Positions 12,862 to 63,828 of a DNA stretch of 64,000 nt are shown piece after piece (within the stretch, counting starts at the first letter, position 1; every line of letters begins with the position of its first letter). The stretch is from Eledone cirrhosa. Taxonomy: Eukaryota. The notes below the pieces were generated by a model that was given only the letters and a program-made list of their open reading frames with translations, searched no databases and was not told the origin of the DNA. The position numbers were made by a program, and so were the translations under genes. Location of the stretch: NCBI GenBank assembly GCA_964016885.1, contig OZ024740.1, forward strand, positions 388,554,001 through 388,618,000, read 5' to 3'.

Positions 12862-13131
12862 TATAATGAATGTGTCTAAAAGCGACTATATGTATGTATA
12901 TATGTGAAAATGTATATAAATAAGTAAATAAGTGGGTGAGTGTATATATCTATATGTGTTTGATGTGTATAATTAAATGTATGTGTATTCATGTATATGT
13001 GTATTTATATATATATATATATATATACACATGGACAAGAGTATGTATGTATATATGTGTGAGTCTATATGTGTGTGTATGAAGATAAGTAGAGTATGAA
13101 AGTGTATATACATGAATGCGTATGTATGTAC

Positions 13132-13176
<45 letters not shown>

Positions 13177-13785
13177 GGTATATATGTATGTAAGTATGAG
13201 CATGTAAGTATGTGTATGTGAGTGTATGTATTTGTAGAGGTGTACATATATGTATGTGTGTGAATGTGTATGTTTTTAAAAAAAATAAGTATATATACGC
13301 ATATATTTATGTGTGGGCGAACGGATACGTACATTGAAAGAAAAAATTAAGTCTGTATGTGAATTAAGTGCAAACACAAAACTAACCATACATATCTATA
13401 CTATCTCTAATCCTTCTATAGATTTAGAAAAACAACCAATACAACCAACGCCAAATAATGAATATTCTATAAAAATGTCAAACTCAACTAACAAAATAAC
13501 AGATGGGAATCTAATTACCCACTGCTATCAAACAATTTCTATCCACTCCCTTAACTATTCTTCTAACAACTTCACTCCTCCCTCTTAATATTCTCTATAA
13601 AAACCAAACAAGTTCTGAATGATATTATTCTGATGAAATTGGTAGTTGAAAATAACATTGAAATATTGAGTGTCTGCATAATTAATACTTTCTAGATAGC
13701 AGCTGTTTTCAGGTTAAATAACTGTTATTGAAACACGTGTCAATAAATTCCTTTTACTGAACTGTATCCATTTAAATCCTTCTAT
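12862..13785 (+). repeat. 5' pseudo-LTR
   Basis: Highly similar direct repeat of 16418-17355. Confidence 0.92.
13625..13746 (+). ncRNA. Hammerhead ribozyme with ~95 nt stem II insertion
   Basis: TTATT-CTGATGA-AAT(T)GGTAGTT...AACTGTTATT-GAAAC-ACGT-GTC-AATAA. Confidence 0.78.
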
Positions 13786-13947
13786 TTTCTCCGGATTACT
13801 TTTGAAACTACAACTGGAACCGTCGAGCAACCCTACGTGAGCTGTCCATCTACTGTGTATAATATTCATATTACAACACTACGGATAATACTATATATTT
13901 ACCTCCTGTAAAGTTGAGCAACCCACTCAGCAAACGTAACCACAACA

Positions 13948-16330
13948 ATGGAAAAGCATTACCTGGATATGTCACTTAAAAACATACCAACCCAAGGTAA
14001 AAAGGAATACTTATTGAGTATGATACAAAAAACAAACGAATTCATTCGACGTGTCAGGTGGAAAACGCTCCACTATGATAGAAGCCGTATGAACTCACAA
14101 TCAGAAAGTGGTGTAAACAACAAATTTGGTTTTAGAACGTGTAAAAACCCACCCACTAACCCACTATTAGATGCATTTGAGCAGGACCTTATGGACTTAA
14201 TCCTTAAAATTAAATTCAAAGGACGTAACACCAACAACAAACTGCAGAAAGATATTAAAAAACTACTGGACGACCTTAAAAACACCAAATTAATTGTAGT
14301 AAAAGCGGACAAAACATCTAACCTGTACACTATGGACTGCACTACATATAACAACTTCATTCGAAAAGAATTACATTAAAAATATAGAAAAACAAGTGAA
14401 GTTACCCTTAAGCACATCAATGATGAGGCATGCGAAATAGTGAAAAATCTCAGAATCGAAGATAGGACTGGACCAATCTTACCGGCGGTACCCACCTTCA
14501 ATCTCAAGGACCATAAGGTAAACTTTGATAATGACCCTAAAATTAGACTAATCTGCCCCTCTAAATCAGATATAGGTAAAATAAGCAAATATATCTTAGA
14601 TAGAATCATCCCCCAATTTAAGGCTAAGGTTAACATTAAACTCTGGGGGAAGACCCAAGAAGCAATAAGATGGTTTAATAGTATTAGCAATAAGAATAAA
14701 TATAAGTTTATCCAGTTTAATATCGATGAATATTACTCATCGATATCACCTGAAACTCTGAATAGAGCCCTTGAGTTTGCTAAGGATAACTCTGACCTTA
14801 CAAACGAAGAAATTAAGATTATATTAGAAGCTAGGAAAACTATAGTCAAATTTGAGAACAGTTATCGGGTTCGTAAAGATAGACCCTCCAACTTTGATAT
14901 AACAATGGGCTCTAACGATTCGGCGGAAATAACTGATATTGTGGGGTTATTTATCGCCTTTAGACTCCAGGAAAAATTCAGTAATCTCCACAGTGGAATA
15001 TACCGCGATGATGCTCTCCTCCTAGTTAAAAACCTAAATAACCAAAAACTAGAAAAACTACGCAAAGATATAAGAAAACTACTACTTGAAATAGGACTAA
15101 CTATAACATATGAACACAACCTTAAAGTAGTTAACTTCCTGGATGTCACACTCAATTTAAACTCTGGTCTGATTAAACCGTTTCATAAATTAAATGAAAA
15201 TCTCAAGTACGTGAATGTTGGGTCTAACCACCCCATCTCTATAATTAAATCTATCCCTAAAAATATTTCCCTTAGAATCTCGGGTCTATCTTCTAACATA
15301 CAAGTATTTAAGGAACACGCCGAGTACTACGATAACGCCCTTAGTAAAGCAGGCTACCTCAACAAAATAGAATATATAGATGAAAACAATCAAAATAAAT
15401 CCCACATAGGTAAAAATAATAACACAACACCAAACCACACTTACTACCATAGTGTACACACCAATAAACCAACAAACAAAACTCATAGAAAGTGATGCAA
15501 AGAGTACTTATGGTATAACCCTGAAAACAATAGTTCCATTAGTACAAATTTGCCAGTACTCTTCTTTAAAATAGTTAAGAAAGATTTTCCTACATCACAC
15601 AAATACCACAAAATCCTAAACCCTACCACTATAAGACTATCATACTCTACAGCGTTAAACCTTGAACAACACATAAAAAAGATTAATACTAGAAGGTTAA
15701 ACGAAAACACTAAAAACTTAAGTACAAAGAGCACAAAAAAAAACAGTAGACAATACACTACAGAACATAAATAAACCACACCTAAGTTCGTCCGCAATAC
15801 TACTCCAGAGTGAACCTAACTACAAAACCAACGTACACAACTGTAACTGCACCTATCCTGACAATTGCCCTCTCGGCAATAACTGCCTTGAAAAAAATAT
15901 CATCTATAAGTGTACCATCGAATCCGGAGGCAACGAGTGGTATTACGTGGGATCAACGGCAACATCGTTTAAATCTCGATTATATAGGCATTCTTACTCA
16001 ATAAAACACCAGAGCTAAAGAAATGTAACAACTTTAGCAGAGAAAGCTTGGACGCTCAGGGATAGCGATCAAAAGTTTACTCTAAAATGGGAGAAATTAA
16101 CTAAAACGCAAAGCTTTTCCAGGAGCCAAAATTTCTGCAAATTATGTAATCTTGAGATTGATTACATAATCACACACAAGAAGAAACTGCTTAATAACAG
16201 AATTGAACGAACATTATTCTGCCGTCACCGAACTAAAACCCTTTTTCCCCCACTACAAGCTGAATATTACATAAACGAGGGACATCCTCCCAACTATACA
16301 AATCCTCAATCTAATTATAAAGCAATCTCT
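13948..16330 (+). pseudogene. Naiad-type PLE reverse transcriptase + GIY-YIG endonuclease, disrupted
   Basis: Motifs SLKNIP, VKADKTSNLY, RLICPSKSDIG, ITMGSNDSAE, YRDD, VNFLDVTL, SNHP, LWYNP, CNCTYPDNCPLGNNC, IIYKC...YYVGST, CKLCNLE...LLN...CRHR. Stops at 14377, 15493 and 15772, plus frameshifts. Confidence 0.92.
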
Positions 16331-16417
16331 TCTCAACATATATATGTACTATTAATAACCTTAAATTACCACACTAATAATGGATAAATATGCTGGTGAG
16401 AATAGGTGTGAATATGC

Positions 16418-16557
16418 TATAATGAATGTGTCTAAAAGCGACCATATGTATGTATATATGTGAAAATGTATATAAATAAGTAAATAAGTGGGTGAGTGTA
16501 TATATATATATATGTTTGATGTGTATAATTAAATGTACGTGTATTCATGTATATGTG

Positions 16558-16604
<47 letters not shown>

Positions 16605-16706
16605 GGACAAGAGTATGTATGTATATATGTGTGAGTCTATGTGTGTGTATGAAGATAAGTAGAGTATGAAAGTGTATATACATGAATGCGTATGTATGTA
16701 CATATA

Positions 16707-16746
<40 letters not shown>

Positions 16747-17355
16747 GGTATATATGTATGTAAGTATGAGCATGTAAGTATGTGTATGTGAGTGTATGTA
16801 TTTGTAGAGGTGTACATATATGTATGTGTGTGAATGTGTATGTTTTTAAAAAAAATAAGTATATATACACATATATTTATGTGTGGGCGAAGGGATACGT
16901 ACACTTGAAAGAAAAATTTAAGTCTGTATGTGAATTAAGTGCAAACACAAAACCAACCATGCATATCTTTACTATCTCTAATCCTTCTATAGATTTAGAA
17001 AAATAACCAATACAACCAACGCCAAATAATGAATATTCTATAAAAATGTCAAACTCAACTAACAAAATAACAGATGGGAATCTAATTACCCACTGCTATC
17101 AAAAAATTTCTATCCACTCCCTTAACTATTCTTCTAACAACTTCACTCCTCCCTCTTAATATTATCTATAAAAACCAAACAAGTTCTGAATGATATTATT
17201 CTGATGAAATGGTAGTTGAAAATAACATTGAAATATTGAGTGTCTGCATAATTAATACTTTGTAGATAGCAGCTGTTTTCAGGTTATATAACTGTTATTG
17301 AAACACGTGTCAATAAATTCCTTTTACTGAACTGTATCCATTTAAATCCTTCTAT
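16418..17355 (+). repeat. 3' pseudo-LTR
   Basis: Direct repeat of 12862-13785. Confidence 0.92.
17196..17316 (+). ncRNA. Hammerhead ribozyme with ~95 nt stem II insertion
   Basis: TTATT-CTGATGA-AATGGTAGTT/AACTGTTATT (10 bp including G-U pairs)-GAAAC-ACGT-GTC-AATAA. Confidence 0.8.
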
Positions 17356-18314: not shown

Positions 18315-18595
18315 TTAAGTCCATAGAATCATTTGCTAAAATATATACAGTATTTCTTCTCCCAATCAGCATAATCAACCACATAAAAAATCAATTAAAC
18401 GAGGCTATAAGTTTAAAATGTACTTATGAAGAAACAATAAATAAATAAATGACAGCTATTTTATCCGCGATCCACAGCCACATAAGATTTACCTAGTATT
18501 TCTAATAGCCCATTCAAATTGACTAGATATATAGTTAACCATACACAATTAGGTACAAAATTTTAGTTAGAAGAAAATATGTACATAAACATACC
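18315..18595 (+). repeat. Diverged single-arm copy of the 24621-25215 palindrome family
   Basis: Shares ctcccaatcagcataat.aaccaca.aaaaaatcaatta...aagaaaca.taaataaata...aaccatac.caattagg. Confidence 0.75.
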
Positions 18596-18682: not shown

Positions 18683-19039
18683 ATGATATTAAATAAATGG
18701 CAACTATATTTATAAAACCATATTTACTATTATATATATTTCAAGGGTACCACAATTTTGGTAGGCTATCATCAGATAAAATACGTAGTGTGTTTTATAA
18801 ATTATGACATAACCAAGTTATGTCAAAATTTATAACACTTCTTATTTTATCTGATGATAGCGTACCAAAATGTTGGTACCCGTGAAATATATATAATAGA
18901 ATAACTATGGTTTTATAAATATAGTTTCCATTTATTTAATATCATTGTATATTATACTCCAGAACAACTGTAGAGTGCTCTGAATCAGTTATAAACATTT
19001 ATATTTGTTGAATTACCAACAAATTGAATATCCCTTCTG

Positions 19040-19853: not shown

Positions 19854-19918
19854 TATTTTGTCTGATGAAGGCATACCATAATTTAATGTGGTATCCCTGA
19901 AATATGTATAATGAAATA
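19854..19918 (+). ncRNA. Type I hammerhead ribozyme (same family as 18843), in a solo PLE 3' end that stops at ~19958
   Basis: TATTTTGT-CTGATGA-AGGc-ATACCATA..TGTGGTAT-cCCT-GAAA-TATGT-ATA-ATGAAATA. The downstream tatggttttataaatatagtttccattt is shared with 18905-18935. Confidence 0.82.
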
Positions 19919-20109
19919 AATATGGTTTTATAAATATAGTTTCCATTTATTAATATCGTATATATATATATAGTATATTAGGGAGAGGATCAGGGGTGTA
20001 TAACACTCCACTTATCCAACAGGCAGTATAAGGTTAGCTCGATGTCTGAGGACAGAGCCGTGATATAATCAACAACAAAGAACGCCTATAGCATATGCAT
20101 ATCTTTACT

Positions 20110-20155
20110 TGCTAACATTGTTTCATCCGCACTATAAGTGGGACTCATCAGAGCA
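20110..20155 (-). ncRNA. Minimal type I hammerhead ribozyme
   Basis: Reverse complement of 23916-23961. Confidence 0.8.
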
Positions 20156-22139
20156 TAAAGTTTGATTACATATCACACAAGCAATAACAAATCCAAGACA
20201 TTGAAGAAATAAGAATAAAAAATAATAAAAGATAAAAAATATTGAGGAAGTAAAAATAAAAATAAACATTGAAAAATAAACATTGAAAGATAAACATTGA
20301 AAAATAATTGAAAAATAAGGGGTGCTATCAGTCACAGTTGGGCGGGGTGCTGTCAACATATAGTTACATACAAGCATACACATGGATAAGAGAACAGACA
20401 AGAATAGATAAGATAGATAGCAGTAGGTAAGAATAGATAAAAAATAGGTGAAAAATAGGTGAAAAATAGACACATAATATATATAAGAAAATATAAAAAA
20501 CATACATATAAAATATACAGATAATAGTGATACAGGGTAAGGAATGAAATAAAATTAAATTAAATTAAATTAAAATTAAAATTATATAAAATAAAATATA
20601 ATATAATATAATAATAAAATAAGATAAAATAAAATAAAATAAAATAAAATAAAATAAACTAAAATAAAATAATATAATATAAAATATAATTAAATAAAAT
20701 TAAATAAATAAAATTAAATAAAATGAAATGAAATAAAATAAAATAAAATAAAGTAAATTGAGATAAGATATATATTTTTTTAGAATATATTTCTCGAATA
20801 TATCAGGGGCCCACGAAGGCCCTAAGTGTCACAGTTATCAGTATCACTTGACCATTGCAATGCAATGGAGACGTCCCAGGTTGGGCAGTCTCAAAAGTTC
20901 ACTCGAAAGTCACGGGTGTGCATTCACACAGTTGAGCGGTGGGGTAATCACAAACCGGTTCACACCCGGGCAGGAGTCCAATGGTCAACAGAGGTACATC
21001 GAAGGAAGGTAGGAGAATTCACGTGCAGCAGCAAGAGGCAGACAAGTGGGCCGAAAGCAAGCAGGTGCAGGCGGGCTAGCCGAAAGCAAGCAAATACAGT
21101 TGGGTCAGGCGGGTTAATATGCATACCCAACAGCGCATACAAAAGATATATAAAAAATAGCTTCAAGAGCCAATATCATGAAGTCACCGCATTGGGACAT
21201 CTCAAGATTATACACACCAATATGTTCTGCACGTATATGCACATATACACACCACATGCATATGCAGAGACGGTATACATATATATATATTTTTATATAC
21301 AGACATATACAACCACCTACACCCATACACATATAAATGTATACACAGACACACACGCACACACACACAGCGTAGGACACCCGGGTCAAAGCTGATATTA
21401 AACACAGAAATACCACATCAGGCAAGACCCACCACCACGGGTAATACATTCAAAATAAATACATACGAGGAGATGCAGTAAAATACATCAAATTGAATTC
21501 CTACGAAGATAATCGTGTCTGCACGTGCCATTGCCCGATTCCAGTGTACACAGACCGTTAGTAACTACGGAGGGCTATCGGGGCCAAAACGTTACTTTTG
21601 GGATAATAACAACGACCGTCAATATATGGAAGGCCGATCGTGCTAGAAAGACTACAACACCGGGCAGGAGCTCCCAGAAGTCAGCCTGTAGATCTTAAAC
21701 CACAGAATAGGAGGGCAACACGTACATGTGCCACGTATCTACTGCTTACGGCGAGATGGCACGGGTCCGCCCACAGTTACAGGCTAGATTTCTATTTGTG
21801 CAGCCTATATCACAGTACACGCTCTACATAGATACATTACATCATAACTCATGCGCATACAGAGGTACAGATCCGCAAGATACACGTCGGGATAGACCCA
21901 CCAATGCACCAATGGTGGGTAGGCGAGCGTGGATGGGTTACATCCGCTGTGCCAAACAGGGGTGCTTATTAACATACACACCCACTCACCTGTACACCCC
22001 AATATCCAGATCAATATTCTCCCGCAGGCATACGTATACACTCACTGACTCATATACATAGAAGACAAACAATAGGAAACAGTTACACACAATAAGAGAC
22101 AGTTACACAAGATAGCCCAACTGGAGAATTAAGGAAGTG

Positions 22140-22588
22140 CTAGCTAATAGGTTTAAAGTAGAAGAAAGAGCTTAATATTCGGTGGGGGCAAGAGGAAAAT
22201 ATTTCTGACTTTCTGTTTAGTAGAGGGCATTTAGCAAATATAATAGAGTGGGATTCGGCAAGGCATAGGTTACATACTCTATTATGAGGAGTATATGGAT
22301 GGGATTTAGCAACCTGCCGCCAAGTAAGTGTGTAATGTGTTCGTGCATTTTTTAAATTGTGGACGTACGCTGCCAAGGAGGTGGAGTTCCTCAGTTTATT
22401 GAGTCTAAAAGTGCACTGGTGAGAGTTAAACCTGGTCTTAAAGGGGGTGGAGGTTGATCCTATATAGGTTTTAGTGGACGCCGTGGTTACCACATCACAC
22501 GCGTAAACTATGTTTCTAATAAGGCAGAAACCATTCAGGGGGCAGCCTGAAGCCCTTCTACAGTTACAATTCTGGTGATGCTATTCTG
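22140..22588 (-). pseudogene. GIY-YIG endonuclease domain of a Naiad-type PLE (5'-truncated, frame still open)
   Basis: CNCRRASGCPLNGFCLIRNIVYACDV...TYIGST...FKTRFNSH...TSLAAYV...CNLCLAE...LLNRKSEIFSSCPH. Confidence 0.9.
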
Positions 22589-23915
22589 GAATGTATTACC
22601 CGTGGTGGTGGGTCTTGCCTGATGGGGTATTTCTGTGTTTAATATCAGCTTTGACCCGGGTGTCCTACGCTGTGTGTGTGTGCGTGTGTGTCTGTGTATA
22701 CATTTATATGTGTATGGGTGTAGGTGGTTGTATATGTCTGTATATAAAAATATATATATATGTATACCGTCTCTGCATATGCATGTGGTGTGTATATGTG
22801 CATATACGTGCAGAACATATTGGTGTGTATAATCTTGAGATGTCCCAATGCGGTGACTTCATGATATTGGCTCTTGAAGCTATTTTTTATATATCTTTTG
22901 TATGCGCTGTTGGGTATGCATATTAACCCGCCTGACCCAACTGTATTTGCTTGCTTTCGGCTAGCCCGCCTGCACCTGCTTGCTTTCGGCCCACTTGTCT
23001 GCCTCTTGCTGCTGCACGTGAATTCTCCTACCTTCCTTCGATGTACCTCTGTTGACCATTGGACTCCTGCCCGGGTGTGAACCGGTTTGTGATTACCCCA
23101 CCGCTCAACTGTGTGAATGCACACCCGTGACTTTCGAGTGAACTTTTGAGACTGCCCAACCTGGGACGTCTCCATTGCATTGCAATGGTCAAGTGATACT
23201 GATAACTGTGACACTTAGGGCCTTCGTGGGCCCCTGATATATTCAAGAAATATATTCTAAAAAAATATATATTCAAGAAATATATTCTAAAAAAATATAT
23301 ATCTTATCTCAATTTACTTTATTTTATTTTATTTTATTTCATTTCATTTTATTTAATTGTATTTATTTAATTTTATTTAATTATATCTTATATTATATTA
23401 TTTTATTTTAGTTTATTTTATTTTATTTTATTTTATTTTATTTTATCTTATTTTATTATTATATTATATTATATTTTATTTTATATAATTTTAATTTTAA
23501 TTTTATTTTATTTTATTTTATTTCATTCCTTACCCTGTATTACTATTATCTGTATATTTTATATGTATGTTTTTTATATTTTCTTATATATATTATGTGT
23601 CTATTTTTCACCTATTTTTCACCTATTTTTTATCTATTCTTACCTACTGCTATCTATCTTATCTATTCTTGTCTGTTCTCTTATCCATGTGTATGCTTGT
23701 ATGTAACTATATGTTGACAGCACCCCGCCCAACTGTGACTGATAGCACCCCTTATTTTTCAATTATTTTTCAATGTTTATCTTTCAATGTTTATTTTTCA
23801 ATGTTTATTTTTATTTTTACTTCCTCAATATTTTTTATCTTTTATTATTTTTTATTCTTTATTTCTTCAATGTCTTGGATTTGTTATTGCTTGTGTGATA
23901 TGTAATCAACCTTTA

Positions 23916-23961
23916 TGCTCTGATGAGTCCCACTTATAGTGCGGATGAAACAATGTTAGCA
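23916..23961 (+). ncRNA. Minimal type I hammerhead ribozyme
   Basis: TGCT-CTGATGA-GTCC-CACT-tat-AGTG-c-GGAT-GAAAC-AAT-GTT-AGCA. Confidence 0.82.
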
Positions 23962-24026
23962 AGTAAAGATATGCATATGCTATAGGCGTTCTTTGTTGTT
24001 GATTATATATATATATATATTAATTC

Positions 24027-24236
24027 AAATAACAGATTAAAGTTTAAGCAAAGAATCGCTGCTTTCACCATTAACGGGATCTTCTGAAGATCCCGTTAAG
24101 GGTGAAAGCAGCGATTCTTTGCTTAAACTTTAAACTGTTATTTAAATAAATATTTGCTCTACGGTTCTTATATATTTGATATATATTTATCCTTATCGAG
24201 CCCTCTTTGGATTTTAGTCTTCAAATTTATTATTAT

Positions 24237-24238
<2 letters not shown>
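24027..24238 (+). mobile_element. Palindromic mini-element (~117 bp hairpin + tail) centred on a hammerhead-like CTGAAGA box
   Basis: Arms 24027-24084 and 24086-24143. CTGAAGA-TCCC-gttaa-GGGT-GAAAG. Relatives at 2614, 53040 and 53355. Confidence 0.75.
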
Positions 24239-24321
<83 letters not shown>

Positions 24322-24329
24322 CACATACA

Positions 24330-24465
24330 GAATAGTTACGTCCCTTTACGATCTGAGTTCAAATCCCGCCGAGGTTGACTTTGCCTTTCATCCTTACGGG
24401 GTCGATAAAATAAAGTACCAGTAATGCACTGGGTAATTGCTGGCCTTGTGCCTAAAGTAGAAACA

Positions 24466-24468
<3 letters not shown>
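24330..24468 (+). mobile_element. tRNA-derived SINE, 5'-truncated
   Basis: B-box GAGTTCAAATCCC plus the family core and tail. Confidence 0.85.
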
Positions 24469-24521
<53 letters not shown>

Positions 24522-24620
24522 TACACATACACCAATTAAACAAAGTCACAGGTATATATGTGTTTTGGCAACTTTTCACGATGTGGCTCAATGGAGAATT
24601 AATAAATTAATCAGAGCAAA

Positions 24621-25215
24621 ATATTATAGAGTAAAGCATGTCCTGAGAATTATTTGATAATATATATACATCATCTTTACTCCCAATCAGCATAATTAAC
24701 CACACAAAAAATCAATTAGACAAGGCTATAAGAATAAATGGCATCTAAGAAGAAACAGTAAATAAATACGCTATTGTGGCGTCTTCGCGAGCAACCGCTA
24801 TAGAATATTTACCCAACATTTCAACAGCAGGTGGAAATTAATTAAATATACAGTCAACCATACATAATTAGGTGAAAATTAATGTTAGAAATGCTTATAT
24901 ACATACCAGGATTTAGTGATTTAATCCTGGTATGTATATAAGCATTTCTAACATTAATTTTTACCTAATTATGTATGGTTGACCGTATATTTAATTAATT
25001 TCCACCTGCTGTTGAAATGTTGGGTAAATATTCTATAGCGGGTGCTCGGAAAGACGCCACAATAGCGTATTTATTTACTGTTTCTTCATAGATGCCTTTT
25101 ATTCTTATAGCCTGGTCTAATTGATTTTTTGTGTGGTTAATTATGCTGATTGGGAGTAGAGATGATGTATATATATTATCAAATAATTCTCTGGACATGC
25201 TTTACTCTATAATAT
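24621..25215. repeat. ~595 bp palindromic element
   Basis: 24621-24911 is inverted at 24924-25215. No intact hammerhead seen. Confidence 0.85.
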
Positions 25216-25402
25216 ATATATATATTTCGCCTGTCTCAAAGTCTAGTAGTAGGAAGAGTGAATCATTGTCCTGATGCATTGTCCTCTTCTATTCATAGCT
25301 GAGGCCTTCAAAATGTTTATTTATTAAATATACCGTATATCTTTAGATATACGAAATTCCTATACTTATTTCCATACAGCGATGTCGAAGTTAATTCTAG
25401 TA

Positions 25403-25495
<93 letters not shown>

Positions 25496-25652
25496 AGTAA
25501 GTAAGTTAATTTTTATAATTTTCTTATTTTACGTCTTTCATATAATTGTTCTGCATCCCCTTGCATTGAACCACAAAGTTACTAAGACAAAACCTATATA
25601 TTTGCTAGCATAGGTATGCATCTGTATATATATGTTGGTAGATATACTAATT

Positions 25653-25692
<40 letters not shown>

Positions 25693-25693
<1 letters not shown>

Positions 25694-26492
25694 ACACGTG
25701 AGAATAATAAAAGTCACAGGAAATTCGGAAACGGCGGACACATAGGCAATACACGCCCGTCGGCTGTCTTCAGTCATTCATTATAGATTCGTGTTGTTGT
25801 CTGGCATGTTCGTACAGTACTATACGAACATGCCAGACAACAACACGACGGTAACATAGACAACATAGAAATTAGAATAATATCTAAACATAGAAATGAC
25901 CCACCAGATAGGCAAATCAGAGAGGCCAGCGAAATAAAACTTAGAAGGCCAAGGCTAAACAGAAAAACTGAATGGAATAACAACAACACCCAAACAAACA
26001 ACACTGACCTAAGAGAAGTATAAATAAATAAATAAATAAATACATACGCAAGCACAATAGCAACAAACACATATAAACACACACTAGTAAACTAAGAGAG
26101 AATACAATAACCCAAACACGAACACACATCAAACAAAACACTATACACACACGCAAACGCATGCGCAGAGAAGACACACAAAAAATAAATAAATAAACAG
26201 ACTAAATAAAGATGGCGTAGGCATACAATACAACGGGAGGAAACATAATAGCACCACTGACGATGTTGCAGATGTGCAACGAAAGAACTTTGTTAGACAA
26301 TATATATATGTTTGTGTCTATATTGTATCTGTATTTTTGACCGTTGGTCAGTCAATGGTAACATTGAGGACCAAATAAATTAAATTAACCGATATAAAAG
26401 ACACAGAAGCGAAAACCAACCAAACAGTGAGTGTGTTCTGTTATTAATTCTGGCAATATTATTACACACATATGACTCTCCCAAGTATAACA
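25693..26492 (+). mobile_element. Single-arm longer copy of the 1475-2549 family, in (TA)n
   Basis: Shares caccactgacgatgttgcagatgtgcaacgaaag (26252-26285) and the terminus gttctgttattaattctggcaatatt...tataac. Confidence 0.8.
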
Positions 26493-26516
<24 letters not shown>

Positions 26517-26523
<7 letters not shown>

Positions 26524-26987
26524 TGAAATGACAGGAGGCTGGATTTGTGTAAATCCTTGAAAGGTTTATTATACTATGATCATTTCAATGACCGGGTTCC
26601 GTATGAATCCGGTGATATCATCAGGTATTCGAAATATAATACGTGAATGTAATAGATAAAATCCATCGGGCTGAAAATCGAGGACCTCGATTTTCAGCCC
26701 CATGGATTTTATCTATTACATTCACGTATTATATTTCGAATACCTGATGATATCACCGGATTCATACGGAGCCCGGTCATTGAAATGATCATAGTATAAT
26801 AAACCTTTCAAGGATTTACACAAATCCAGCCTCCTGTCATTTCATTTAATATTTAACTCCGTAATAGCACCACCAACTACAAAAACAAAGACGGTTGAAC
26901 TGCCTTACGTTGAGTACTCTCTATATTATTGCATTACGATTGACCATACGGAATAGACCAGCTCTATACAGTGGTGAACCTCAAACC

Positions 26988-26990
<3 letters not shown>
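26517..26990 (+). mobile_element. Palindromic hammerhead mini-element (~335 bp hairpin + 140 bp tail) in (TA)n
   Basis: Near-perfect palindrome centred at ~26684. Hammerheads at 26571-26628 (-) and 26740-26797 (+). Relative at 63860-64000. Confidence 0.9.
26740..26797 (+). ncRNA. Type I hammerhead ribozyme
   Basis: ATAC-CTGATGA-tatc-ACCGG..CCGGT-catt-GAAA-TGATC-ATA-GTAT, with self-complementary TATGATCATA-like stem III region (ATGATCAT). Confidence 0.8.
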
Positions 26991-27040
<50 letters not shown>

Positions 27041-27044
<4 letters not shown>

Positions 27045-27398
27045 TAACAAAATAGATATTCTTGTGATCAAGTTTCAGAGGTACTGAGTTAACTTCAGCA
27101 GTACGTCCTCATCAGATAAAATAAGATGATGCATGACATACCCTGACATAGTAGATGGTTAAAATTCAGTCATGGTATGTCATGCATCATTTTATTTTAT
27201 CTGATGAGGACGTACTGTTGAAGTTAACTCAGTACCGCTGAAATATGTATAATAAAATATACTTGATCACAAGAATATCTATCTTGTTAATATTTTGAAT
27301 TAATATTAATAACTCTGGAAAACCACAACTGTTGAGTGCTTCCAATCTATTGTAAAACTCATTCTTTGATTTATTCATTGAACCTTGTTTAACCTTTA
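27041..27398 (+). mobile_element. Palindromic hammerhead mini-element (~250 bp hairpin + tail) in (TA)n
   Basis: Arms 27041-27140 and 27172-27292. The left arm lacks the stem III/cleavage segment. Confidence 0.85.
27193..27259 (+). ncRNA. Type I hammerhead ribozyme
   Basis: TATTTTAT-CTGATGA-ggac-GTACTG..CAGTAC-cgct-GAAA-TATGT-ATA-ATAAAATA. Confidence 0.82.
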
Positions 27399-27408
27399 AA
27401 TATATATG

Positions 27409-27464
<56 letters not shown>

Positions 27465-27465
27465 C

Positions 27466-27500
<35 letters not shown>

Positions 27501-29229
27501 AATGTGTGTGTATACGTGCATACACACACAAATATGTACACATATATACTAATTCTGTCTCACTGAGAAATATAACCTGCTACGTATGGGAAGACCTTCA
27601 AATGCTAAATTGGGGCGGTTTAATTGACTATTGCAATACATATAATTTCATTTACGTTGAATTGATTGTTATTTTACATTGATCCTGAGGTACCAAAAGC
27701 GTGTTATGCATCTTAAATGATGTCAAATAAACATAGTAATCGTAATTACTATCGTATGCTTGAAGAAACATGTTATATAATGTTTATTACGCTTTCAGTA
27801 ATGTTATTCAAATTTGTTAAGATAGATATTTAATGTAGTGTTACAGATAGTTCCATAGTATCGAATTACTGCTAATACTAAAAGATTTAACATGATATAC
27901 TACTTAGGACTTACAACAGAATAATTTTGAATAAAAGATCAGCAACAAACATTCATTTTAAATTTGACAATTTTGTTTTCTCTCATTCAACTGGTTTCAG
28001 TGATGAGACAGTGGCTATATGGTGCAATGCCGATCATATTAACCGGAATACCTATCTTACCCTCGTACCTATTTTATCGATATCCCCTTATCATATAGAC
28101 ATACCACTAAGACATAAACGAATACAAGATGTCACATTGTTTAATATCAGTATGAGGAAACATAGGAAGATACAGATATACTTAGATAAATATCATAAGG
28201 CATTAGCCGCTGATTTTCAATCAATTATGCCACTGACCACTTTCTTTAGAAAATGCCAACAGTGGAATTCTAAATCAAATAGATAAATTGGGTATGAATG
28301 CTCTTGTCCAAATTGATGTTTGTCAAGACTTATAATTTAGATTTTTCACCTACAAAGCTTCAAATATGGGAGAATGGGTACACAGCTGGTACATATTTCA
28401 TCGACTAAGGAAGGATGAAGTCAAACACCAAAAATGTAGCTAAATACCCCAATGAAGTTTTATTGTTAATCTACCGATTCTACCGATACTTCGAAATAGT
28501 AATATTCGGAAGTCTTTGTGCACGATATCAATCTTAAACTTTTATTCATTCTTTTGGTGAATCAAGTCAACAATAATTGTAATGTGTTTCGAATTTTAAG
28601 AAAGAACAACTTGGAAAATCCTACAGCACAAGCAACTCAGATGAATATCAAAACTAGAAGAAAATATGAATGACCTGTGGAGCAGAATCATATGTCTAAC
28701 TATACAAACAATGTGTGTATGATGAATAATATATTCATGACATAGCAACTACGAAATAATTGATAAAAATGTCCGTAAATTTTACATGACAAAGTAGAAC
28801 TTAAAATGCAACATAACCAAATACATTAAAACATGACTATTATGCCAATAGCGACAATAAAACGTACATGTCTGTGGTGAGAGATACATCAATTAGAAGA
28901 CATTTTTATTCTTCGTGTAATTTAACCATGATATTCGGTTGGTTGTCTTTGATCTACCTGTGAGTATGTTTTTACTATTTTTTTTCTTTTGGTATTTCGT
29001 AGTGTTAACATAGATTCCAGTGTTATGTAAATCCCAACTACTAACACCAACTAACAGCCACCACCAGTACTACAATAAAAGAAAACATTACCAACAAAAA
29101 CAACATCAATGACATCGACAGAAGTAGTAACAACTATGTCAATAACAGTAGTAACAAGGTACAACAACAGCAGCAACAGTAACAGCAACAACATATACAC
29201 AACACTGAAAACGTGTAAACAAGAAAGAT

Positions 29230-29400
29230 AATTGTTTCTACTTTTGGCACAATTACCCACTACATTACTGGTACTTTATTGTATCGACCCCGTAGGGATG
29301 AAAGGTAAAGTTAACCTCGGCGGGATTTGAACTCAGAATGGAAAGGGCCGTAACTCTTTGCGTCAAAGCATGGTGTCCGACCCTCTACCGATACTGCCAA
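29230..29400 (-). mobile_element. tRNA-derived SINE
   Basis: Reverse complement of the family consensus, including A- and B-boxes. Confidence 0.85.
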
Positions 29401-29437: not shown

Positions 29438-31156
29438 CACCGTGTAACTTTCTCTCTTCTTGGCTTGTAATCACTTTTTTGTGTTGCTTAGGTCCCAAAT
29501 AAATAAAAAAGTGCTATTAAACAGTTAAAAGTTTGGGTTGGTAAACATTCTAAGCTCTTCACTAGAATTATTTGTATGCTGGATTTTACGTTGTATGTAA
29601 GTTTAATTTGCTTATGTTAAATGGTTTTTTTTTTATATATGTTTCAGGTTAAATTAAAATGATAAAATAAAGAGCAATACCTAAAGAAAATTATAAAAGT
29701 GCAATAAAGTATAAAATTGTTAAAAAGTGGATTAAAGAGATTTATTGATACTGGATTTTCGCACCCTGAATAAAGCGTAAGTTGTTTTTTAAGCATTCGT
29801 CTCCAGGATGAAGCAGTGGAACTTGGTAAAGGAGGAAGTGCAGGTGACAAGTCAGAGAAGTCGGCACGAACCTTTCTCAGGCTTTTACACTCTTAGGGAT
29901 GGCCTCTGCTTCTGCCATGACGTGCCTGGAATGTTTGACGTTATTTGGGTGCCGTTTGTGCCCAAGGAGTGGCGGCTATTTATAGACAGCTCCACCAGAA
30001 GTTTGAAGGCTGTCCTCCTCCACAATGGAAACAAGTTCCCGACACTGCCCCTAGCTCATTCAGTCTGCCTGAAGGAAGATTACTCCAGTGTGAAAGTCCT
30101 CTTGGAAGCTCTGCAATACAACCAGTACAATTGGGAAATCATTGGAGACTTCAAGATGGTGGCTTTTCTGCTTGGACTCCAAGGAGGATTTATCAAATTT
30201 CAATACTTCCTCTACCTTTGGGACAGCAGCGCCACCTCTGACCACTACAAAAGAAAGAACTGAGAGCAGCGAACAGAATTTGTAGTTGGGACCCGGAATG
30301 TCATGTGGGAGCCACTGGTTGATCCCAGGATTGTGCTCATGCCACCACTGCACATTAAGTTGGGGTTGATGAAGGCTCTCAACCAAGAATCAGCCGCTTT
30401 TAAGTACCTTCTTGAGTTCTTCCCCAAGTTATCTGAGGCCAAAATCGAAGGTTGAAATTTTGTTGGACCTCAGATAAAGAAGGGGTTGGAGTCTACCGAG
30501 TTCTCCAATAAGCTCAATAGGATTGAGAGAACAACATGGAACTATTTCAAGGTAGTTGTTAAGGGCTTCCTGGGCAACTACAGAGCTGAAAACTACCAGC
30601 AACTGGTGCAGGATCTGATAAAGGCTTTTGGCGCCATGGGATACAGGATGTCGCTTAAACTCCATATACTGGACGCTCCCCTGGAAAAATTCAAGGACAA
30701 TATGGGCGCCTACTCAGAAGAACAAGGCGAACGATTCCACCAAGATGTGAAAGAGATAGAGCGGAGGTACCAGGGCCACTACAATGAAAGAATGATGGGG
30801 GACTATATCTGGGGGCTAGTGCGGGTATGCGACCTGGACTACAACCGCAAATCCAGGAAATCCAGTCATTTCTGACGTGTATAAATTGCTTTATAAGTGT
30901 TATTTGTTTTTACTTGTTTGCTTTTGATAAGCTTGTGTAATAAAATAAATATATACTCTGTTGATTTAATTATATGAACTGATAAATTTTAAAAAATGTG
31001 TTTTTTCTTGAAAAATATGAAAATTTCGAAATATCAAACTCCTGACCACAAACTCAAACTTCTGATTAAATAATAGTGTTTTTTTTATAATAATGGGATA
31101 TAACAAACCATGAAATGACACTTAGAACCGGGGAAGAAAAAATATGTTACACGGTG
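29438..31156 (+). mobile_element. Chapaev3-type (CMC superfamily) DNA transposon, internally deleted
   Basis: Termini CACCGTGTAAC / GTTACACGGTG flanked by TAA on both sides (3-bp TWA target duplication), with a transposase remnant inside. Confidence 0.8.
29795..30875 (+). pseudogene. Chapaev3-like transposase, N-terminally truncated, with stops and indels
   Basis: WRLFIDSSTRSLKAVLLHNGN, IIGDFKMVAFLLGLQGG, PPLHIKLGLMK, MSLKLHILD, MGAYSEEQGERFHQD, MMGDYIWGL. Stops at 30261 and near 30453. Confidence 0.85.
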
Positions 31157-32699: not shown

Positions 32700-34140
32700 T
32701 GTGTAATCTACCTAAAGATGATTTCGGAATTTTAGCTACTGGAAATTTATTGCATCTTTTCCTCGAATCTAATCATTACTTTCAAATAATATTCCATAAT
32801 ATATAGATTTCTTAATCATGCTCATGATTAAACTATAAAAGTACTTTCATCTATCTTCCTAAAATATATTCGTATATTTTCCTTTGTTTCCACATAAACC
32901 ACTCTTATCGAACCATGCTCCAAAAATTCGTATATTTTCCTTTGTTTCCAAAATATTTCTTCTCGAATTCACTTGATTCTTTACATCTTTCAATTATTCA
33001 AGTACTTGCCTAATGAATTTATCTACGTTACTGTATAAAAGTTTGATCTATTTTAGGCTATACAATATAGTCTCCTATTAGTCTAACACTGTCTTTGTAG
33101 TTGTGTCGGATTTAGGAAATGTTTAAATCATTTAATCGGTATGGCCGGAAATGTGGCATTGTTAGCACACTGTGTTTGTTTCACTGTGTATTCAGGCACC
33201 TCAGGATTTCTTTTCTTGGCTTTAGTGGAAGCAGAGAAACTCTCTATTCTAACTATTCGTGGTGCACAACCAAGCAAAACATATTTAGGTCTAGTGAAGT
33301 GGTGATTATTGCTGAATGCTAATTCCTCCATAATGAAATGTGTTCCATACCATGTATTGTGTATCTAGGAATACATTGACTAATGTGTCCGCCTGTAAGT
33401 CATCAAGGAGGGTATGATTTAATGAATGCTTTCCTGGTATTTCTAGCAGTTTGAGTGACTGTGTAGTGTTTCCTAGTTGTAGTGCTAATGAAGCCTTTAA
33501 TAATTGTTTCTACTTTAGGCACAAGGCCAGCAATTACCCAGTGCATTACTGGTACTTTATTTTATCGACCCCGTAAGGATGAAAGGCAAAGTCAACCTCG
33601 GCGGGATTTGAACTCAGATCGTAAAGGGACGTAATTATGCAGGAAAGCATGGCGTCCGACCCTCTACCGATACTGTCAAAATGTTATTAAATCTATATTC
33701 AAATGCTTTTGTCTTCATTGAGTGAAGGAGATATGAAGGAGATTGTAGTCGGGAATGTTGTAGATAACTGTGATTTGTTGAAGATTAGGTTTGAATCAGA
33801 TATTGAGAGTGCTAGACCTAGCTGAAACAGCCAGCATGGCCAAATAAGTATCGAGATAGCATCAGGTTTTGATTCAGATTGGTTCCCAGATTATGCGATC
33901 TCTGACTGTGTTTGCAGTCAGTGATGATACTTTTACAATGCTGTTTTGTTTGTTAGTATATTCTTAGTTTAGGAAGCAGTGGCATTATTCCCAGCATGGT
34001 ACTCGCTCTATATTTTGCTTAGTAAGAACAGGTGTTTTGTTTCTGGTTAATTTAATTGTATCTTTCAATACTACGTTCACTTCTCTAGGATCCATTTTAC
34101 ACATACCATAAAGTCTGATCACATTTTTACTCACTCAGCG
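32700..34140 (-). pseudogene. Highly decayed non-LTR RT remnant (possibly R4/Dong-like), interrupted by a SINE at 33500-33678
   Basis: Minus-strand peptide traces such as SIVKSIITDCK...HNL resemble the region before the DYxKAYD motif. No intact motif. Confidence 0.3.
33500..33678 (-). mobile_element. tRNA-derived SINE
   Basis: Near-complete reverse-complement copy. Confidence 0.88.
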
Positions 34141-38957: not shown

Positions 38958-39147
38958 AAGCGGTGGATTGGCAGTATCGGTAAAGGTTCGGACGCCATGC
39001 TTTTCAGCACAGAGTTACGGCCCTTGCCATTCTAAGTTCAAATCCCGCCGAGGTTAACTTTGCCTTTCATCCGTACGGGCTCGATAAAATAAAGTACCAG
39101 TAATACACTGGATAATTGCTGGACTTGTGCCAAAAGTAGAAACAATT
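38958..39147 (+). mobile_element. tRNA-derived SINE, full length
   Basis: A/B boxes, core and tail. Further copies at 39830-40016 and 40215-40392. Confidence 0.88.
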
Positions 39148-40513
39148 ATGTGCATACAAATAGTTATGATGAGGCAAATGTAAAGACAACTTGAGAAGAC
39201 AGATGACACATTTCATCTCATCAAACAGACAGAATGAATGGAATATAGTTTCACTTCATAACTCAGTATAACCACGGAAGATCTGTGAAATCATGTCGAC
39301 ATGAGACGATATTTTATTTTCTAAATCTAAAAACCACATTATTTCATATTTAAATATTTTCATTCTATCTCTCTAATAAGATAGGAAATACAAAACATAT
39401 TAACTCATTATCAACTATGTGTAAGTTTTTATCTCTTTCGCAGAATACTCTCAAGTAATTTGAATTATTAGTTTTGACATTAATTTAATGAAATCTAATC
39501 ACTTTACATGTAATGAAGCAGAAACGACAAATTGTATACCAACGTTGTAGGAATACACATCAAACGAATATTACAAGAAACATATTTTCACATGATTCCA
39601 CCGTGTAAATATTAAACATATTCTCATAATATTGACATTTTGTCATATTCCACTTGTGTCAACCTCCACACCCATACATACCCCCACCATACACACACAC
39701 ATACTCACACACAAATATATATATTCTAGGGCGGGTAAAATTCCCGAGATCCATGGACGAGTTCTCTCCAGCGGTCTTGAGTATTTTTTCTCTTTCTTTT
39801 TTTCCTTTCCCTTTTCTTTGCATATATTATATTGAATTGACAGTATCAGTAGAGGGTCGGACGCCATGCTTTCCAGCATAGTTACGTCCCTTCATGGTCT
39901 GAGTTTAAATCCCTCCGAGGTTAACTTTGCCTTTCATCCTTACGGGGTCGATAAAATAAAGTACCAGTAATACACTGTGATAATTGCTGGCCTTGTGCCA
40001 AAAGTAGAAACAATTATATTTGTTAGTGTTTTCGTTCTGTAACAATTATATTAAATGAGTTTAAAAAAAAAAAAGAGTTAATAAATAAATAAAGAGTTAA
40101 TGAATAAATAAAACGTTATACCTCTTTTACCCTCCCATTTCCAATTCACAGAACGAAATTTAGTTACTAAATTTAGTACATAAATTATGTAATATTCATT
40201 CATTATTTATTCAAATTGGCAGTATTGGTAGAGGGTCAGACATGCTTTCCAGCGTAGTTACGTCCCTTTACAATCTTATTTCAAATCCCGCCGAGGTTAA
40301 CTTTGCCTTTCATCTTTACGGGGTCGATAAAATAAAGTACCAGTAATGTACTCGGTATTTGCTGACCTTGCGCCAAAAGTAGAAACAATTATTTATTCAA
40401 AGTAATCAAACTTATTTTACTAACTGGATTAAAAGAAATGAACCGTACGCAGTCCTTACTTTATTATAGTTTAGATAAGTATAACTATTATTATTATTAT
40501 TATTATTATTATT

Positions 40514-40814: not shown

Positions 40815-44150
<3,336 letters not shown>

Positions 44151-44187
44151 GTTGGTGCTGAAAAGTTAAAAGAGGAAAAGAGATCAC

Positions 44188-46133
44188 TCACACTTCGATT
44201 TCCATGGGGGTGTTGGAGGGGTTGTCTGGACGGGTGGTGGTTTCCGGCGGGGTGGGGATGCAGATGTTTGGTGGGGTGGGGTCTGGTGGGATGGGGGTGT
44301 CTGGGGTGGGGAGGCATTTGAGAAGGATGCGGTTGAGTGGTTTCACGCAGGAATTCCCCACATCCTTCTCAAATGTTTCTTTTAGGGACCTATAAGTTTG
44401 TATAGGGACCCTAATCAGTTTTAGGTTCAGTTTTTTGCTATTTTTTATAGAGTGGGCGAAAGTTTTACCTTCGGTGAAAACCGAAGGGTCGTTCGTGATG
44501 GTCTCCATTAGTGTTTTGTTTTCAGTGTTTATGTAAGTGTAAGTGTAATTTTCTTGTGTTGTGTTTGTTTTTGTCTGTAGTTCTTGTGTGTGCTTTCGTT
44601 TTGTTGTAGGTATTTTGTTTTCAGGAGGTGGGGGTTTTGTTTGTGATATTTTTGTTGTTTGTGTTGGTGGTTGTATGTTTGTGGTAGTGTTTGCTGGTTT
44701 TTTTGCTTTTGTGATGTCTTTTCTTTCTTTTCGAGCGATGGGGTTCTCCCTCGCCTTCACTGGGTGATGGCGAGATAGCCTCATCTGTTGTATCGTCTGT
44801 GTGATTGGGGAGGGGTATGTCTTGGGGAGCTGTTGTGTCTGTTATGTGATTTTGCAGTGGTTTTAGGTGGAGTGGGGTTGGGTGGGACTGTGTTTCTTGT
44901 GTTTATTTTTGTGTGTTGGTGTTGTTGTTGTTGTGGTGGTGTTGGTGCTTGTGTTGTTTTGATGGGTTTCGGCAGAAGAGCCTTTTTTTGGTTCATTAGT
45001 TTAGGACAGGAAGCCCTCAGGTGACCCCTGCTAAAGCAATGGTAAGAGGAAGGCCGCCTACCCTCAACCGAAACGTTTATGTAGGTGAGTCCGTCCAGGA
45101 GTACACGCTGTGGGATCATAGCTATTCGCTCTGGGCTCATTTGCACCAGAACTTCAATGCTAGTCCCATTGAATACATCTCTGAGGGACTTTCCTACTGA
45201 CAGTATTCTGTCTTCATCAAAATTGATGAAGCCGCACAGTATCCACCATATGTTCACATTTGGTGTGACACTTGTGATTCTGATCTTTTGTGTCCTTTTT
45301 CCCATGTATGTAGGGAAAAAGGTGTACAGGTTGGATACAATTGGCGACATAGAGTAATTTTGGGCCGTCAATTGATCCTTCATGAGTACCGAAATACTCC
45401 CAAAAAGTTTGCTTCTTTGAATGAATGCAATATCATTCATTGAATCTTTGAAAACCAGTTCAATATCTTTCTGTGACAATTGGACTGGTTTTCGGGTAGA
45501 ATTGGAAACTGTCCTAAAAACTATCGTTTTAAGAGCAGTTTCCTTGCAAATTTCTACCGGAGAATTGATGCTGAAAGCACCATTTTTATCGAAAGTGACA
45601 TATCTCTTAGCGTCCTTTAAAAGGTGTTCAGCATTTGTTATGTCGAGATATATCAATTGTTCTTTCTTTTGAACTTTCTTCGCAAAGGAGATTTTTGGTT
45701 TCTTTGTGGAATCCGTATTGGTGGTGTTGTCATTATTGTTGTTATTGTTGTTGTTATTCTTGTTGTCACCGATGTTGGTATCATCCGTATTTTCCTTGGT
45801 GTTGTTGTTGTCTTTGCTGCTGGTGTTATTGGCGTTGTCTTTATTTTTTTTCTTTGTTGTTGTTATCATTGTTGCTTTTATCATCATTATTGGTTTTGCT
45901 GTTATTTTTGTTGTCATTGAACTGTTTGGTGTCATTTGAGTTGTTTGGATATGAATTCGTTTTTTTTATTTTCATTTTGTCTTTCCATCTCTATAGTATC
46001 TAGTGAAGAAGACGTTGTTGACTGCGATCTTTGTAGTCTTACCGCCTCTCCACCACTATTATCGTTGGACGCAGCGTTCATAACGTAATCAAAATTTTAC
46101 CATATCTTTTTCCAAGATTCGATGGAGAAACAT
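44188..46133 (-). pseudogene. LINE ORF1 (gag-like, degenerate CCHC knuckle, Pro/Thr-rich tail), frameshifted
   Basis: VEGRRPSSYHCFSRGHLRASCP, directly upstream of ORF2. Segments 44781-45935 and 44188-44784. Confidence 0.8.
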
Positions 46134-49808: not shown

Positions 49809-49941
49809 CGGAGAAGCAACTTTACTCAATATACTGCGTAGCTCGGAGATCAGAGCACTATTTCATGCTCTCTGTTTCGCTTTCGGAATCCTGTAACCAA
49901 ATTTCTTTGTGCTGTTACATTTGCTGTTGTTGGTTGAGTTT

Positions 49942-56662: not shown

Positions 56663-57305
56663 AATTGTTTCCACTTTTGGCACAAGGCCAGCAATTATCC
56701 CAGTGCATTATTGGTACTTTATTTTATCGACCCCGTAAGGATGAAAGGCAAAGTTAACCTTGAAAGGCAAAGTTAAACTCAGAACATGGTACCTGGCGTT
56801 CTACCGATACTGCCAATCCTCCGCCCTACCTAATATAATTGTTTCTACTGTTTGGCACAAGGCCAGCAACTACACAGTACATTACTGGTACTTTATTTTA
56901 TCGACCCCGTAAGGATGAAAGGCAAAGTTAACCTCGGCGGGATTTGAACTCAGAATGGCAAGGGCCGTAACTCTATGCGTCAAAGCATGGCGTCCGACTC
57001 TCTACTGATACTGCCAGTTCTAGTAAATGATAGTCTAACTAAATTTCAGTCTAACTAAAATATGTATATTCCAGAGCAACAGCTGATTAATTAAGTGTAA
57101 CTAAGGGTATTAATAATGGATTTTGATTTAGCTACAAGGCCAACAATTTTGGAGGAGGGGAAAGACCATGAAATTGACTCCAATGCATTACTGGTACATT
57201 GTTTTATCGACTCCCTAAGGATGAAAGACAAAGCTAACCTCGGTGCGGTTTGAACTCAGACCATAAGGGGACGTAACTATGTGCTGAAAAGCATATTATC
57301 CGACG
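56663..57305 (-). mobile_element. Three SINE copies (56663-56826, 56837-57018, 57120-57305)
   Basis: Reverse-complement cores. TACCTAATATAAT is duplicated around the first copy. Confidence 0.85.
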
Positions 57306-61813: not shown

Positions 61814-61999
61814 ATTTTATATATATATATACATGTGTGTGTGTTTGTGTATGTCTGTGAGGCGGCGGGGGGGGGGGGATGCAATGACTGATCTTTTGTT
61901 TATTTTGAAGTCTTCTGTGTTCATGTGCCAAGTATCTTGACGATGACGATTATTTATGTTTTTTGTTGAACTTTACCGGTTTAAGCTGTGTTTACAGCC

Positions 62000-63758: not shown

Positions 63759-63828
<70 letters not shown>

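Follow-up and report, generated by a model that had tools for sequence, protein, structure and literature searches.

The window, i.e. the whole 64,000-nt stretch of Eledone cirrhosa DNA that was analysed, contained a nearly perfect hairpin at 26518-26850. Two arms of 166 bp each, 26518-26683 and 26685-26850, were separated by a loop of a single nucleotide, A26684, and two mismatches were counted between them (26701/26667 and 26771/26597). The near-perfect pairing and the small number of arm differences reported in an earlier sequence-only reading were thus confirmed; however, the hairpin measured 333 bp in total rather than the 335 bp given there. The left arm, on the minus strand, corresponded to the 5'-truncated 3' end of a PLE with its tail-less terminus facing left, and the right arm carried the same truncated end on the plus strand, the 3' ends of both copies pointing outward. 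A tail of 139 nt without an ORF (26851-26989, plus strand) extended from the right arm only. The left junction was formed by a (TA)n run at 26493-26517, which also terminated an adjoining, unrelated PLE remnant, and the right junction by a (TA)n run at 26990-27040. Since (TA)n was present at both sides of the hairpin, no target-site duplication was readable at either junction.

In the PLE insertions known from the available parts of Craig et al. 2021 (PMC8557442), an inverted 5'-truncated copy lies next to the element, a tail of 30-40 bp is often present at one end and there is a bias toward (TA)n; the geometry of the present insertion fitted Fig. 2 and the text of that paper. As far as the accessible parts of PMC8557442 and PMC3846280 go, insertions of endonuclease-bearing PLEs shared with it the head-to-head arms, the 5' truncation, the tail at one end, the hammerhead near the 3' end and the (TA)n target without a readable duplication. 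In contrast, the tail was longer than the published ones and there was a stem-loop at the terminus. The hairpin with its one-sided tail is very probably a truncated inverted PLE insertion, and this insertion type is the already published pattern of an inverted 5'-truncated copy plus tail, i.e. routine PLE debris. A recent insertion, as the sequence-only reading had it, is plausible in view of one private change in each arm; nevertheless, homogenisation of the arms would look alike.

Twenty-four sequencing runs were listed, of which 14 contained part of the stretch and four were mapped onto the insertion. In run X4, one contig of 385 nt spanned 26686-26990 without inversion, with three differences and one gap, and continued upstream of the inversion point with 50 other bases; the upstream loose end in run X5 was the same. 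Since the family continues upstream uninverted, the turn at 26684 is a truncation point and not the 5' end of the family, and the tail is family sequence throughout. G26771 was private to the right arm; as no C>G change was found in X4, the second mismatch is likely a private change of the left arm. In run X1, 1729 contigs mapped, and the summed depth fell from approximately 842,000 over the hammerhead to approximately 79,000 at 26839-26849, a drop which mixes ends with divergence and is not a copy number. In run X23, 214 reads, possibly from one locus, left the family after 26846 and entered a microsatellite. Among the joints listed in the run mapping, one contig contained an opposite-strand joint, 26776/26950. 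No RNA run containing the stretch was found among the runs listed, and a pattern scan of metagenome contigs (eight loci) and viral contigs (one locus) gave only chance matches of 20-24 nt without flanking similarity.

A second copy of the family formed a short fold-back at 63859-64000 (plus strand) and was 87% identical to 26801-26901 across 101 nt. Its inverted arm ended within approximately 3 nt of the same outer site, whereas its turn point differed from 26684 and was located downstream of the hammerhead, which this copy did not contain. The sequence-only reading had assigned to it the same outer end and tail and an inversion downstream of the ribozyme. The outer end and the turn were as described; the window ends before the tail of this copy does, and therefore only the tail-less ends can be compared. 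The inversion point is thus variable and the outer end fixed, as had been claimed, which supports the proposal made on that ground that such hairpins may form during integration.

Type I hammerhead motifs were present in both arms, within the terminal repeat. The motif of the sense arm was located at 26740-26797 on the plus strand, with predicted cleavage after A26793, and that of the inverted arm at 26571-26628 on the minus strand, where the family A was kept at the position equivalent to 26771. Both strands read ATAC-CTGATGA-(31 nt)-GAAA-TGATCA-TA-GTAT (+ 26740-26797 and - 26628-26571), in agreement with the earlier reading. The plus-strand motif had a 4-bp stem I, a long stem II with U-U at its base and a C-C mismatch, and a palindromic helix III. 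The same scan gave 13 distinct hammerhead-like sites in the window, compared with a mean of 0.2 in 30 shuffles. In the window, no Rfam hammerhead match reached the gathering score, and at 24000-28000 only sub-threshold generic hairpins were found. The available part of Cervera and De la Pena 2014 (PMC4209133) reports opposite-strand hammerhead pairs 100-700 bp apart, and also low activity. The minimal PLE hammerheads treated there were similar to the present ones in being of type I, in the 4-bp helix I, the long helix II and the palindromic helix III, and in occurring singly or as opposite-strand pairs in truncated elements. However, the G10.1-C11.1 pair and the bulged base after A9, which are called highly conserved in that paper, were absent here and replaced by U-U. 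Four hammerheads of the window (26751-26781, 18858-18883, 19869-19897 and 27208-27239) had C opposite C at position four of stem II, with different flanking pairs.

When the whole-locus transcript of either strand was folded, all 11 core positions were paired with a probability of 1.0. The active monomer fold of the 26740-26797 hammerhead was 10.3 kcal/mol above the minimum-energy fold, the largest gap among the 11 hammerheads compared (0.9-6.0 kcal/mol for the other 10), and the active dimer was found at -18.6 kcal/mol, approximately 17 kcal/mol above the cofold minimum of -35.7 kcal/mol; these nearest-neighbour energies omit the tertiary core of the hammerhead. From this modelling, both hammerheads are predicted to be buried inside the hairpin and to misfold. 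The earlier claim of an intact hammerhead in both polarities was thus correct for the core letters on both strands, but there was no Rfam match and the core was fully paired in the locus transcript. The ATGATCAT palindrome, said to suit dimeric stem III formation, was present and matched the dimer model in the consulted part of PMC4209133; its duplex was worth -9.2 kcal/mol, against -3.8 kcal/mol in a family variant that breaks the palindrome and accounts for 6% of contig depth in X1 and 21-36% of reads in X23. Nevertheless, the energy of the active dimer lent little support to dimer cleavage. Each strand of the hairpin carries one sense hammerhead, and since the two motifs are on opposite strands they would not form an intramolecular dimer. 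Hammerhead cleavage was also considered as the origin of the 5' ends and rejected, because the arms extend 108 nt beyond the cleavage site and the 63860 turn is approximately 7-10 nt downstream of it.

The tail contained a bulged hairpin, hairpin 1, at 26856-26921 on the plus strand, starting 5 nt beyond the tail-less end. Neither this stem-loop nor a link to the Hydra clade had been noticed in the sequence-only reading. It consisted of an ACTC/GAGT outer stem, a TT bulge, a CGTAA/TTACG inner stem and a 40-nt AC-rich loop, and was followed by ACTCT. The general form, i.e. RCTC, stem, loop, stem, 2-nt bulge and GAGY followed by RCTYT, was found just past the tail-less end in Hydra loci, of which 15 were fetched first and more later. 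These loci came from bacterial assemblies and are likely animal host DNA; several such assemblies (L010-L048) contained Hydra-clade PLEs with (TA)n flanks, likely as host contamination. The fetched loci showed the same inverted, tailed structures as the window.

The strict hairpin pattern had 18 occurrences in the window (mean 3.95 and maximum 10 in 100 shuffles), and the 15 loci fetched first contained 22 (shuffle mean 7.4, maximum 13). When hairpins were picked on their outer boxes only, so that pairing played no part in the choice, 20 distinct ones were obtained; 56 of their 60 inner-stem cells were paired, compared with a mean of 33.3 and a maximum of 44 in 10000 column shuffles, and several pair types were present per position; one hairpin of this set is probably a chance match, and the related families in it are not independent. 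Since the hairpins fell out of register under MAFFT, covariance models were used. A model seeded with four sequences missed the hairpin of the insertion and found 23 further hairpins in 21 loci (E up to 0.26), each of them at a site already read as a tail or a 5' UTR. In the 35-hit alignment, which was itself fitted to the structure, six of seven pairs changed on both sides. A covariance model from 30 hits in 21 non-window Hydra loci ranked 26856-26921 second in the window, with 16.7 bits and an E value of 0.1 (0.0011 within 701 bp). Nine of its 12 window matches were at PLE tails or 5' UTRs, and the three others were at 49841, 33805 and 3083. At 49841-49867, the model and the pattern both matched, on both strands, and no hammerhead or inverted arm was identified nearby. 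The folding z-scores of the hairpins were weak (-1.95 to +0.71), those of the whole tails were unremarkable (0.59 for the insertion), and G-U pairs were too few to indicate RNA. A pattern search gave no bulged hairpin in the 60-nt tail of the non-Hydra 1475/26022 family of the window.

Because the tail hairpin is shared, the family of the insertion was placed in the Hydra clade, an assignment that is probably correct; the bulged hairpin is a feature found here and not a published clade criterion. The insertion in (TA)n is also a Hydra feature; however, it is common to other clades and is thus not diagnostic. Further likeness to the Hydra clade was seen in the hammerhead, which is approximately 110 nt from the end, has a U preceding GAAA and shows U-U at the stem II base (as do 14 of the 26 Hydra rows of File S2 by author count), and in the occurrence of the tail hairpin in ORF-bearing Hydra loci. 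On the other hand, stem II was longer with its C-C mismatch, no family ORF was seen, and the hairpin differed from the Hydra hairpins in its RCTC/GAGY with an A-U closing pair and in its loop (40 nt against 3-16 nt). No ORF linked to the exact family was found in the element or in the run contigs, which reach only 50-74 nt upstream. An assignment to Naiad or Nematis was dropped since the protein motifs match Hydra.

A near-full-length but broken Hydra-clade PLE of a different family was located at 12862-17352 on the plus strand. It had pseudo-LTRs in the form of direct repeats of approximately 920 bp and an ORF for RT and GIY-YIG that was broken by stops and frameshifts, the pieces of which contained RWK, DKT, CxCX5C, CxxC and CxH, all five Hydra motifs. 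An endonuclease fragment at 22143-22580 contained CxCX5C, CxxC and CxH. A profile from 82 homologs matched the ORF pieces of the 12862-17352 element and the endonuclease fragment of the 20063 element (E 3.5e-39). Pfam recognised none of the four PLE pieces among the Hydra ORF pieces, with GIY-YIG appearing only at E 0.026; the 22143-22580 fragment as a query returned no longer homologs and no loci, and no Hydra loci were found among viral contigs. The hammerhead core of this element (13630/17201) was without clear stems I and III. Its two hairpins, both degenerate, were at 13788 and approximately 13900, 112 nt apart, and its ATG was at 13948. The tail of the insertion aligned in register with the 5' UTR of this element when anchored at the junction, which ties the insertion to an ORF in an indirect way. 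By local alignment the similarity was not significant (z 1.8, reached by 18 of 300 shuffles). The junction-anchored alignment, which was chosen afterwards, was matched by none of 1000 shuffles, by one of 17888 window segments and by 0-9 of 3051 under six other scorings.

Two hairpins were present between the hammerhead and the start codon in all six fetched loci with an intact 5' UTR (L011, L012, L015, L016, L017 and L029). They were spaced by 62-69 nt, and the ATG followed the start of hairpin 2 by 38-49 nt where it was read, the start codon of L017 being uncertain. Among the six published Hydra consensi inspected by eye in File S7, four shared the tail hairpin, one of them in a deviant form: Hydra-1_Ajap has both hairpins at its start, hairpin 1 stands at the end of Hydra-2_Ajap and of Hydra-2_Amil, and Hydra-1_Crog has deviant forms at both ends, while none was seen in Hydra-1_Amil and Hydra-1_Obim was ambiguous.

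The ends of the elements were related to these hairpins. From 17 comparisons with hairpin 1, a cross-subfamily row at 19858 was dropped and four rows read by eye were counted as three families, and 14 of the 15 comparisons kept placed the tail-less end 2-7 nt before hairpin 1. Eleven gaps were exact, i.e. 5 nt in the insertion under study, 6 in 63860, 3 in 8111, 4 in 20063, 7 in 18680, 3 in 24621, 2 in the full-length element, 6 in L019, 6 and 6 in the L021 family and 3 in L048. Gaps in the same range were read past point differences in 24020, L014 5822 and L021 7094 (twice), and the exception was the 27041 element, with its tail-less end approximately 18 nt before the hairpin. The tailed ends were 4, 4, 5 and 8 nt before hairpin 2 in all four comparisons, from three family groups. 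The bases just 5' of each hairpin were A/T-rich and overlapped the target TA by a few bases. Since the ends lie a few nucleotides before hairpin 1 or hairpin 2, the tail likely equals the hairpin spacing, and the two stem-loops likely mark two sites where copying starts. The tail length was approximately 65 nt in sponge- and mollusc-associated loci and 90-140 nt in the window, and the 139-nt tail of the insertion exceeds the measured hairpin spacings of 62-112 nt. Its own hairpin 2 is predicted, on the model, to lie just past 26989; the 30-hit covariance model gave no second hairpin inside 26851-26989. A GCTC at approximately 26962 was rejected as hairpin 2, as it had no partner and was GTTC in other copies.

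At least eight other inverted elements with one-sided tails were found in the window (1475, 8111, 18680, 20063, 24020, 24621, 27041 and 63859). Among the 13 Hydra-type inverted elements inspected, eight from the window and five from the loci, 11 had one tailed and one tail-less end; the exceptions were L014 1235-5080 with both ends tail-less and L018 with both ends tailed. In L014 5828-6173, a single locus on a metagenome-assembled contig, the tail was on the shorter arm.

We favour, with moderate confidence, the reading that a Hydra-clade PLE inserted here once, 5'-truncated and head-to-head, with the ends set by two bulged RNA stem-loops. The full mechanism of twin priming has in our view a slightly better than even chance of being right. 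The RT-endonuclease would act as a dimer that holds the two hairpins of a single RNA molecule and nicks the (TA)n target on both strands, and synthesis would then be primed from each nick at the A/U-rich bases immediately 5' of a hairpin. The two cDNAs would halt at approximately one common truncation point, after which the RTs would jump reciprocally, each continuing on the cDNA made by the other. The product would be a palindrome in which the hairpin spacing is the excess length of one arm. The hammerhead would be carried along as a passenger, copied uncleaved and, if the locus is transcribed, locked in dsRNA. Twin priming would account for the one-tailed pattern in 11 of the 13 elements, the short spacers and the case of L014 5828-6173, where the shorter arm bears the tail. 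The chances seem about even that the duplicated, covarying hairpin of the 5' UTR acts in Hydra-clade PLEs as a ruler for the RT, each subunit of the dimer binding one hairpin and priming 2-8 nt upstream on (TA)n. If so, the ruler would account for the use of either of two 3' ends, for tail lengths that differ between families and for the head-to-head insertions tailed on one side.

A live rival is self-priming, in which one cDNA started from the tail end would be truncated, fold back and copy itself until it stops at a fixed block near hairpin 1, as is proposed for junction palindromes in the available part of PMC3846280. It equally explains the short spacers, since a plain fold-back predicts near-zero ones and 1-9 nt were found in six window elements (the insertion, 63860, 24020, 18680, 24621 and 1475), and it fits four of the five readable spacer polarities, which were those of the tailed arm in 20063, 63860, L019 and L014 5139. 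However, a single fold-back cannot put the tail on the shorter arm as in L014 5828-6173, and the loop letters of the insertion mismatch a fold-back of the upstream sequence of X4 and X5. Tail-less ends were found on direct copies as well (the 3' repeat ending at 17352, L047 and L034), so this site serves as an independent start site; we regard self-priming as rather doubtful. It is improbable that the hairpin motifs act at the level of DNA, where the GIY-YIG endonuclease would recognise them in cDNA or genomic DNA and trim the intermediate, the ends being cut sites. The G-U pairs too few to show RNA would suit such trimming, and so would the consulted parts of PMC8557442, which ascribes the tail to endonuclease-mediated resolution, and of PMC11167929, which cites the Penelope tail as needed for endonuclease recognition. 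Yet, in the sole PLE reconstituted in vitro, the genomic ends were RT start sites on RNA, as far as the available part of PMC11167929 describes it, and the overlap of the A/T-rich bases with the target TA is what priming would give.

A self-standing non-autonomous element, retrozyme-like or a fold-back mini-element that spreads as a hairpin unit by means of its hammerheads, would be in keeping with the abundance of the family (the 1729 contigs of X1, with the depth peak over the hammerhead), with the missing family ORF and with the origin of retrozymes from PLE terminal repeats proposed in the available part of bioRxiv 10.64898/2026.07.22.740005. We consider it very improbable, as tandem direct units with a type I hammerhead, by which non-LTR retrozymes are recognised, were absent, the second copy has another turn point and no hammerhead, uninverted copies extend upstream, and every core position of the ribozyme is paired in a transcript of the hairpin. 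The long near-perfect inverted repeat with TA-rich flanks and no coding sequence might also be taken for a MITE or for a fold-back artefact of assembly or library. The one-sided tail, the variable centre and the uninverted upstream continuation do not agree with the symmetry and fixed ends of a MITE, which the sequence-only reading had named as the alternative to the PLE origin supported here; moreover, the arms differ at two sites, and the mirroring does not run into the flank but stops at a site common to 63860 and the 214 reads of X23 (possibly one locus). A MITE or an artefact is thus hardly credible.

The reading of two stem-loops setting the ends was also considered beside the elements already described. 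According to the available part of Frangieh et al. 2024 (PMC11167929), a PLE protein cuts and extends both target strands, two internal start sites bound the tail, a dimer is predicted and ribozyme cleavage is not needed. Poseidon PAc of green anole, as treated there, is similar to the present insertion in the two adjacent termini that bound the tail, the AC-rich stem-loop nearby and the uncleaved hammerhead that is copied through; a repeated hairpin is not described in that part of the paper. Neither hairpin nor stem-loop is used as a word in Craig et al., main text or supplement. No description of an end-marking hairpin pair was found in the literature searched, including the text and supplement of Craig et al. 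and three text supplements of Frangieh et al., a search outside which lie figures, Repbase records, subscription journals and Arkhipova 2006 and 2017. What appears to be new is the end-marking hairpins, not the fold-back itself. Only one PLE has been reconstituted in vitro. For the choice of internal start sites by PLEs and the making of the one-sided tail, a short, conserved structure that occurs twice and keeps a constant distance to each end is a testable candidate for the cis-signal of the two RT start sites. Such hairpins allow a direct mutational test and the design of minimal templates for Hydra-clade proteins, and help to assign ORF-less stubs to the Hydra clade and to define where a consensus begins and ends. 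In Drosophila, silencing small RNAs are reported to arise from inverted Penelope copies (available part of PMC3681739), and hairpin stubs like the present one could likewise yield them.

Several other elements were observed in the window. A second hammerhead PLE family, with a classical hammerhead containing the bulge and the G-C pair and with a 60-nt tail, was found at 25789-26492 (plus strand), adjoining the insertion on its left, and at 1475-2550. The segment at approximately 25820-26017, which had no Pfam match, is presumably a GIY-YIG C-terminus, judged from motifs. The inverted element at 20063-24008 had arms of approximately 1.4 kb, a Hydra endonuclease fragment in its spacer and approximately 2 kb, possibly captured host sequence, between the end of the ORF and the hammerhead. 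A fold-back with 293-bp arms and the Hydra tail hairpin was present at 24621-25215 and 18319-18572, in which the CTGANGA core was not found. A decayed PLE at 61879-63430 contained an RT fragment (62208-62468, E 6.7e-7 with the Hydra profile) and an inverted 5' piece, and a degenerate element bounded by (TA)n at 63560-63765 carried a tail hairpin at 63602-63577 on the minus strand. A broken ORF at 29793-30875 (plus strand) had no Pfam match, and we take it by its motifs to resemble a DNA-transposon protein. A LINE with ORF1, AP endonuclease and RT was located at 40815-45965 on the minus strand (Pfam Exo_endo_phos, E 4.9e-13; RVT_1, E 9.3e-27), and approximately 18 SINE-like repeats of 140-190 bp were dispersed in both orientations over 24328-61816, e.g. 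at 29218-29400, 33499-33680, 38960-39149 and 56832-57020.
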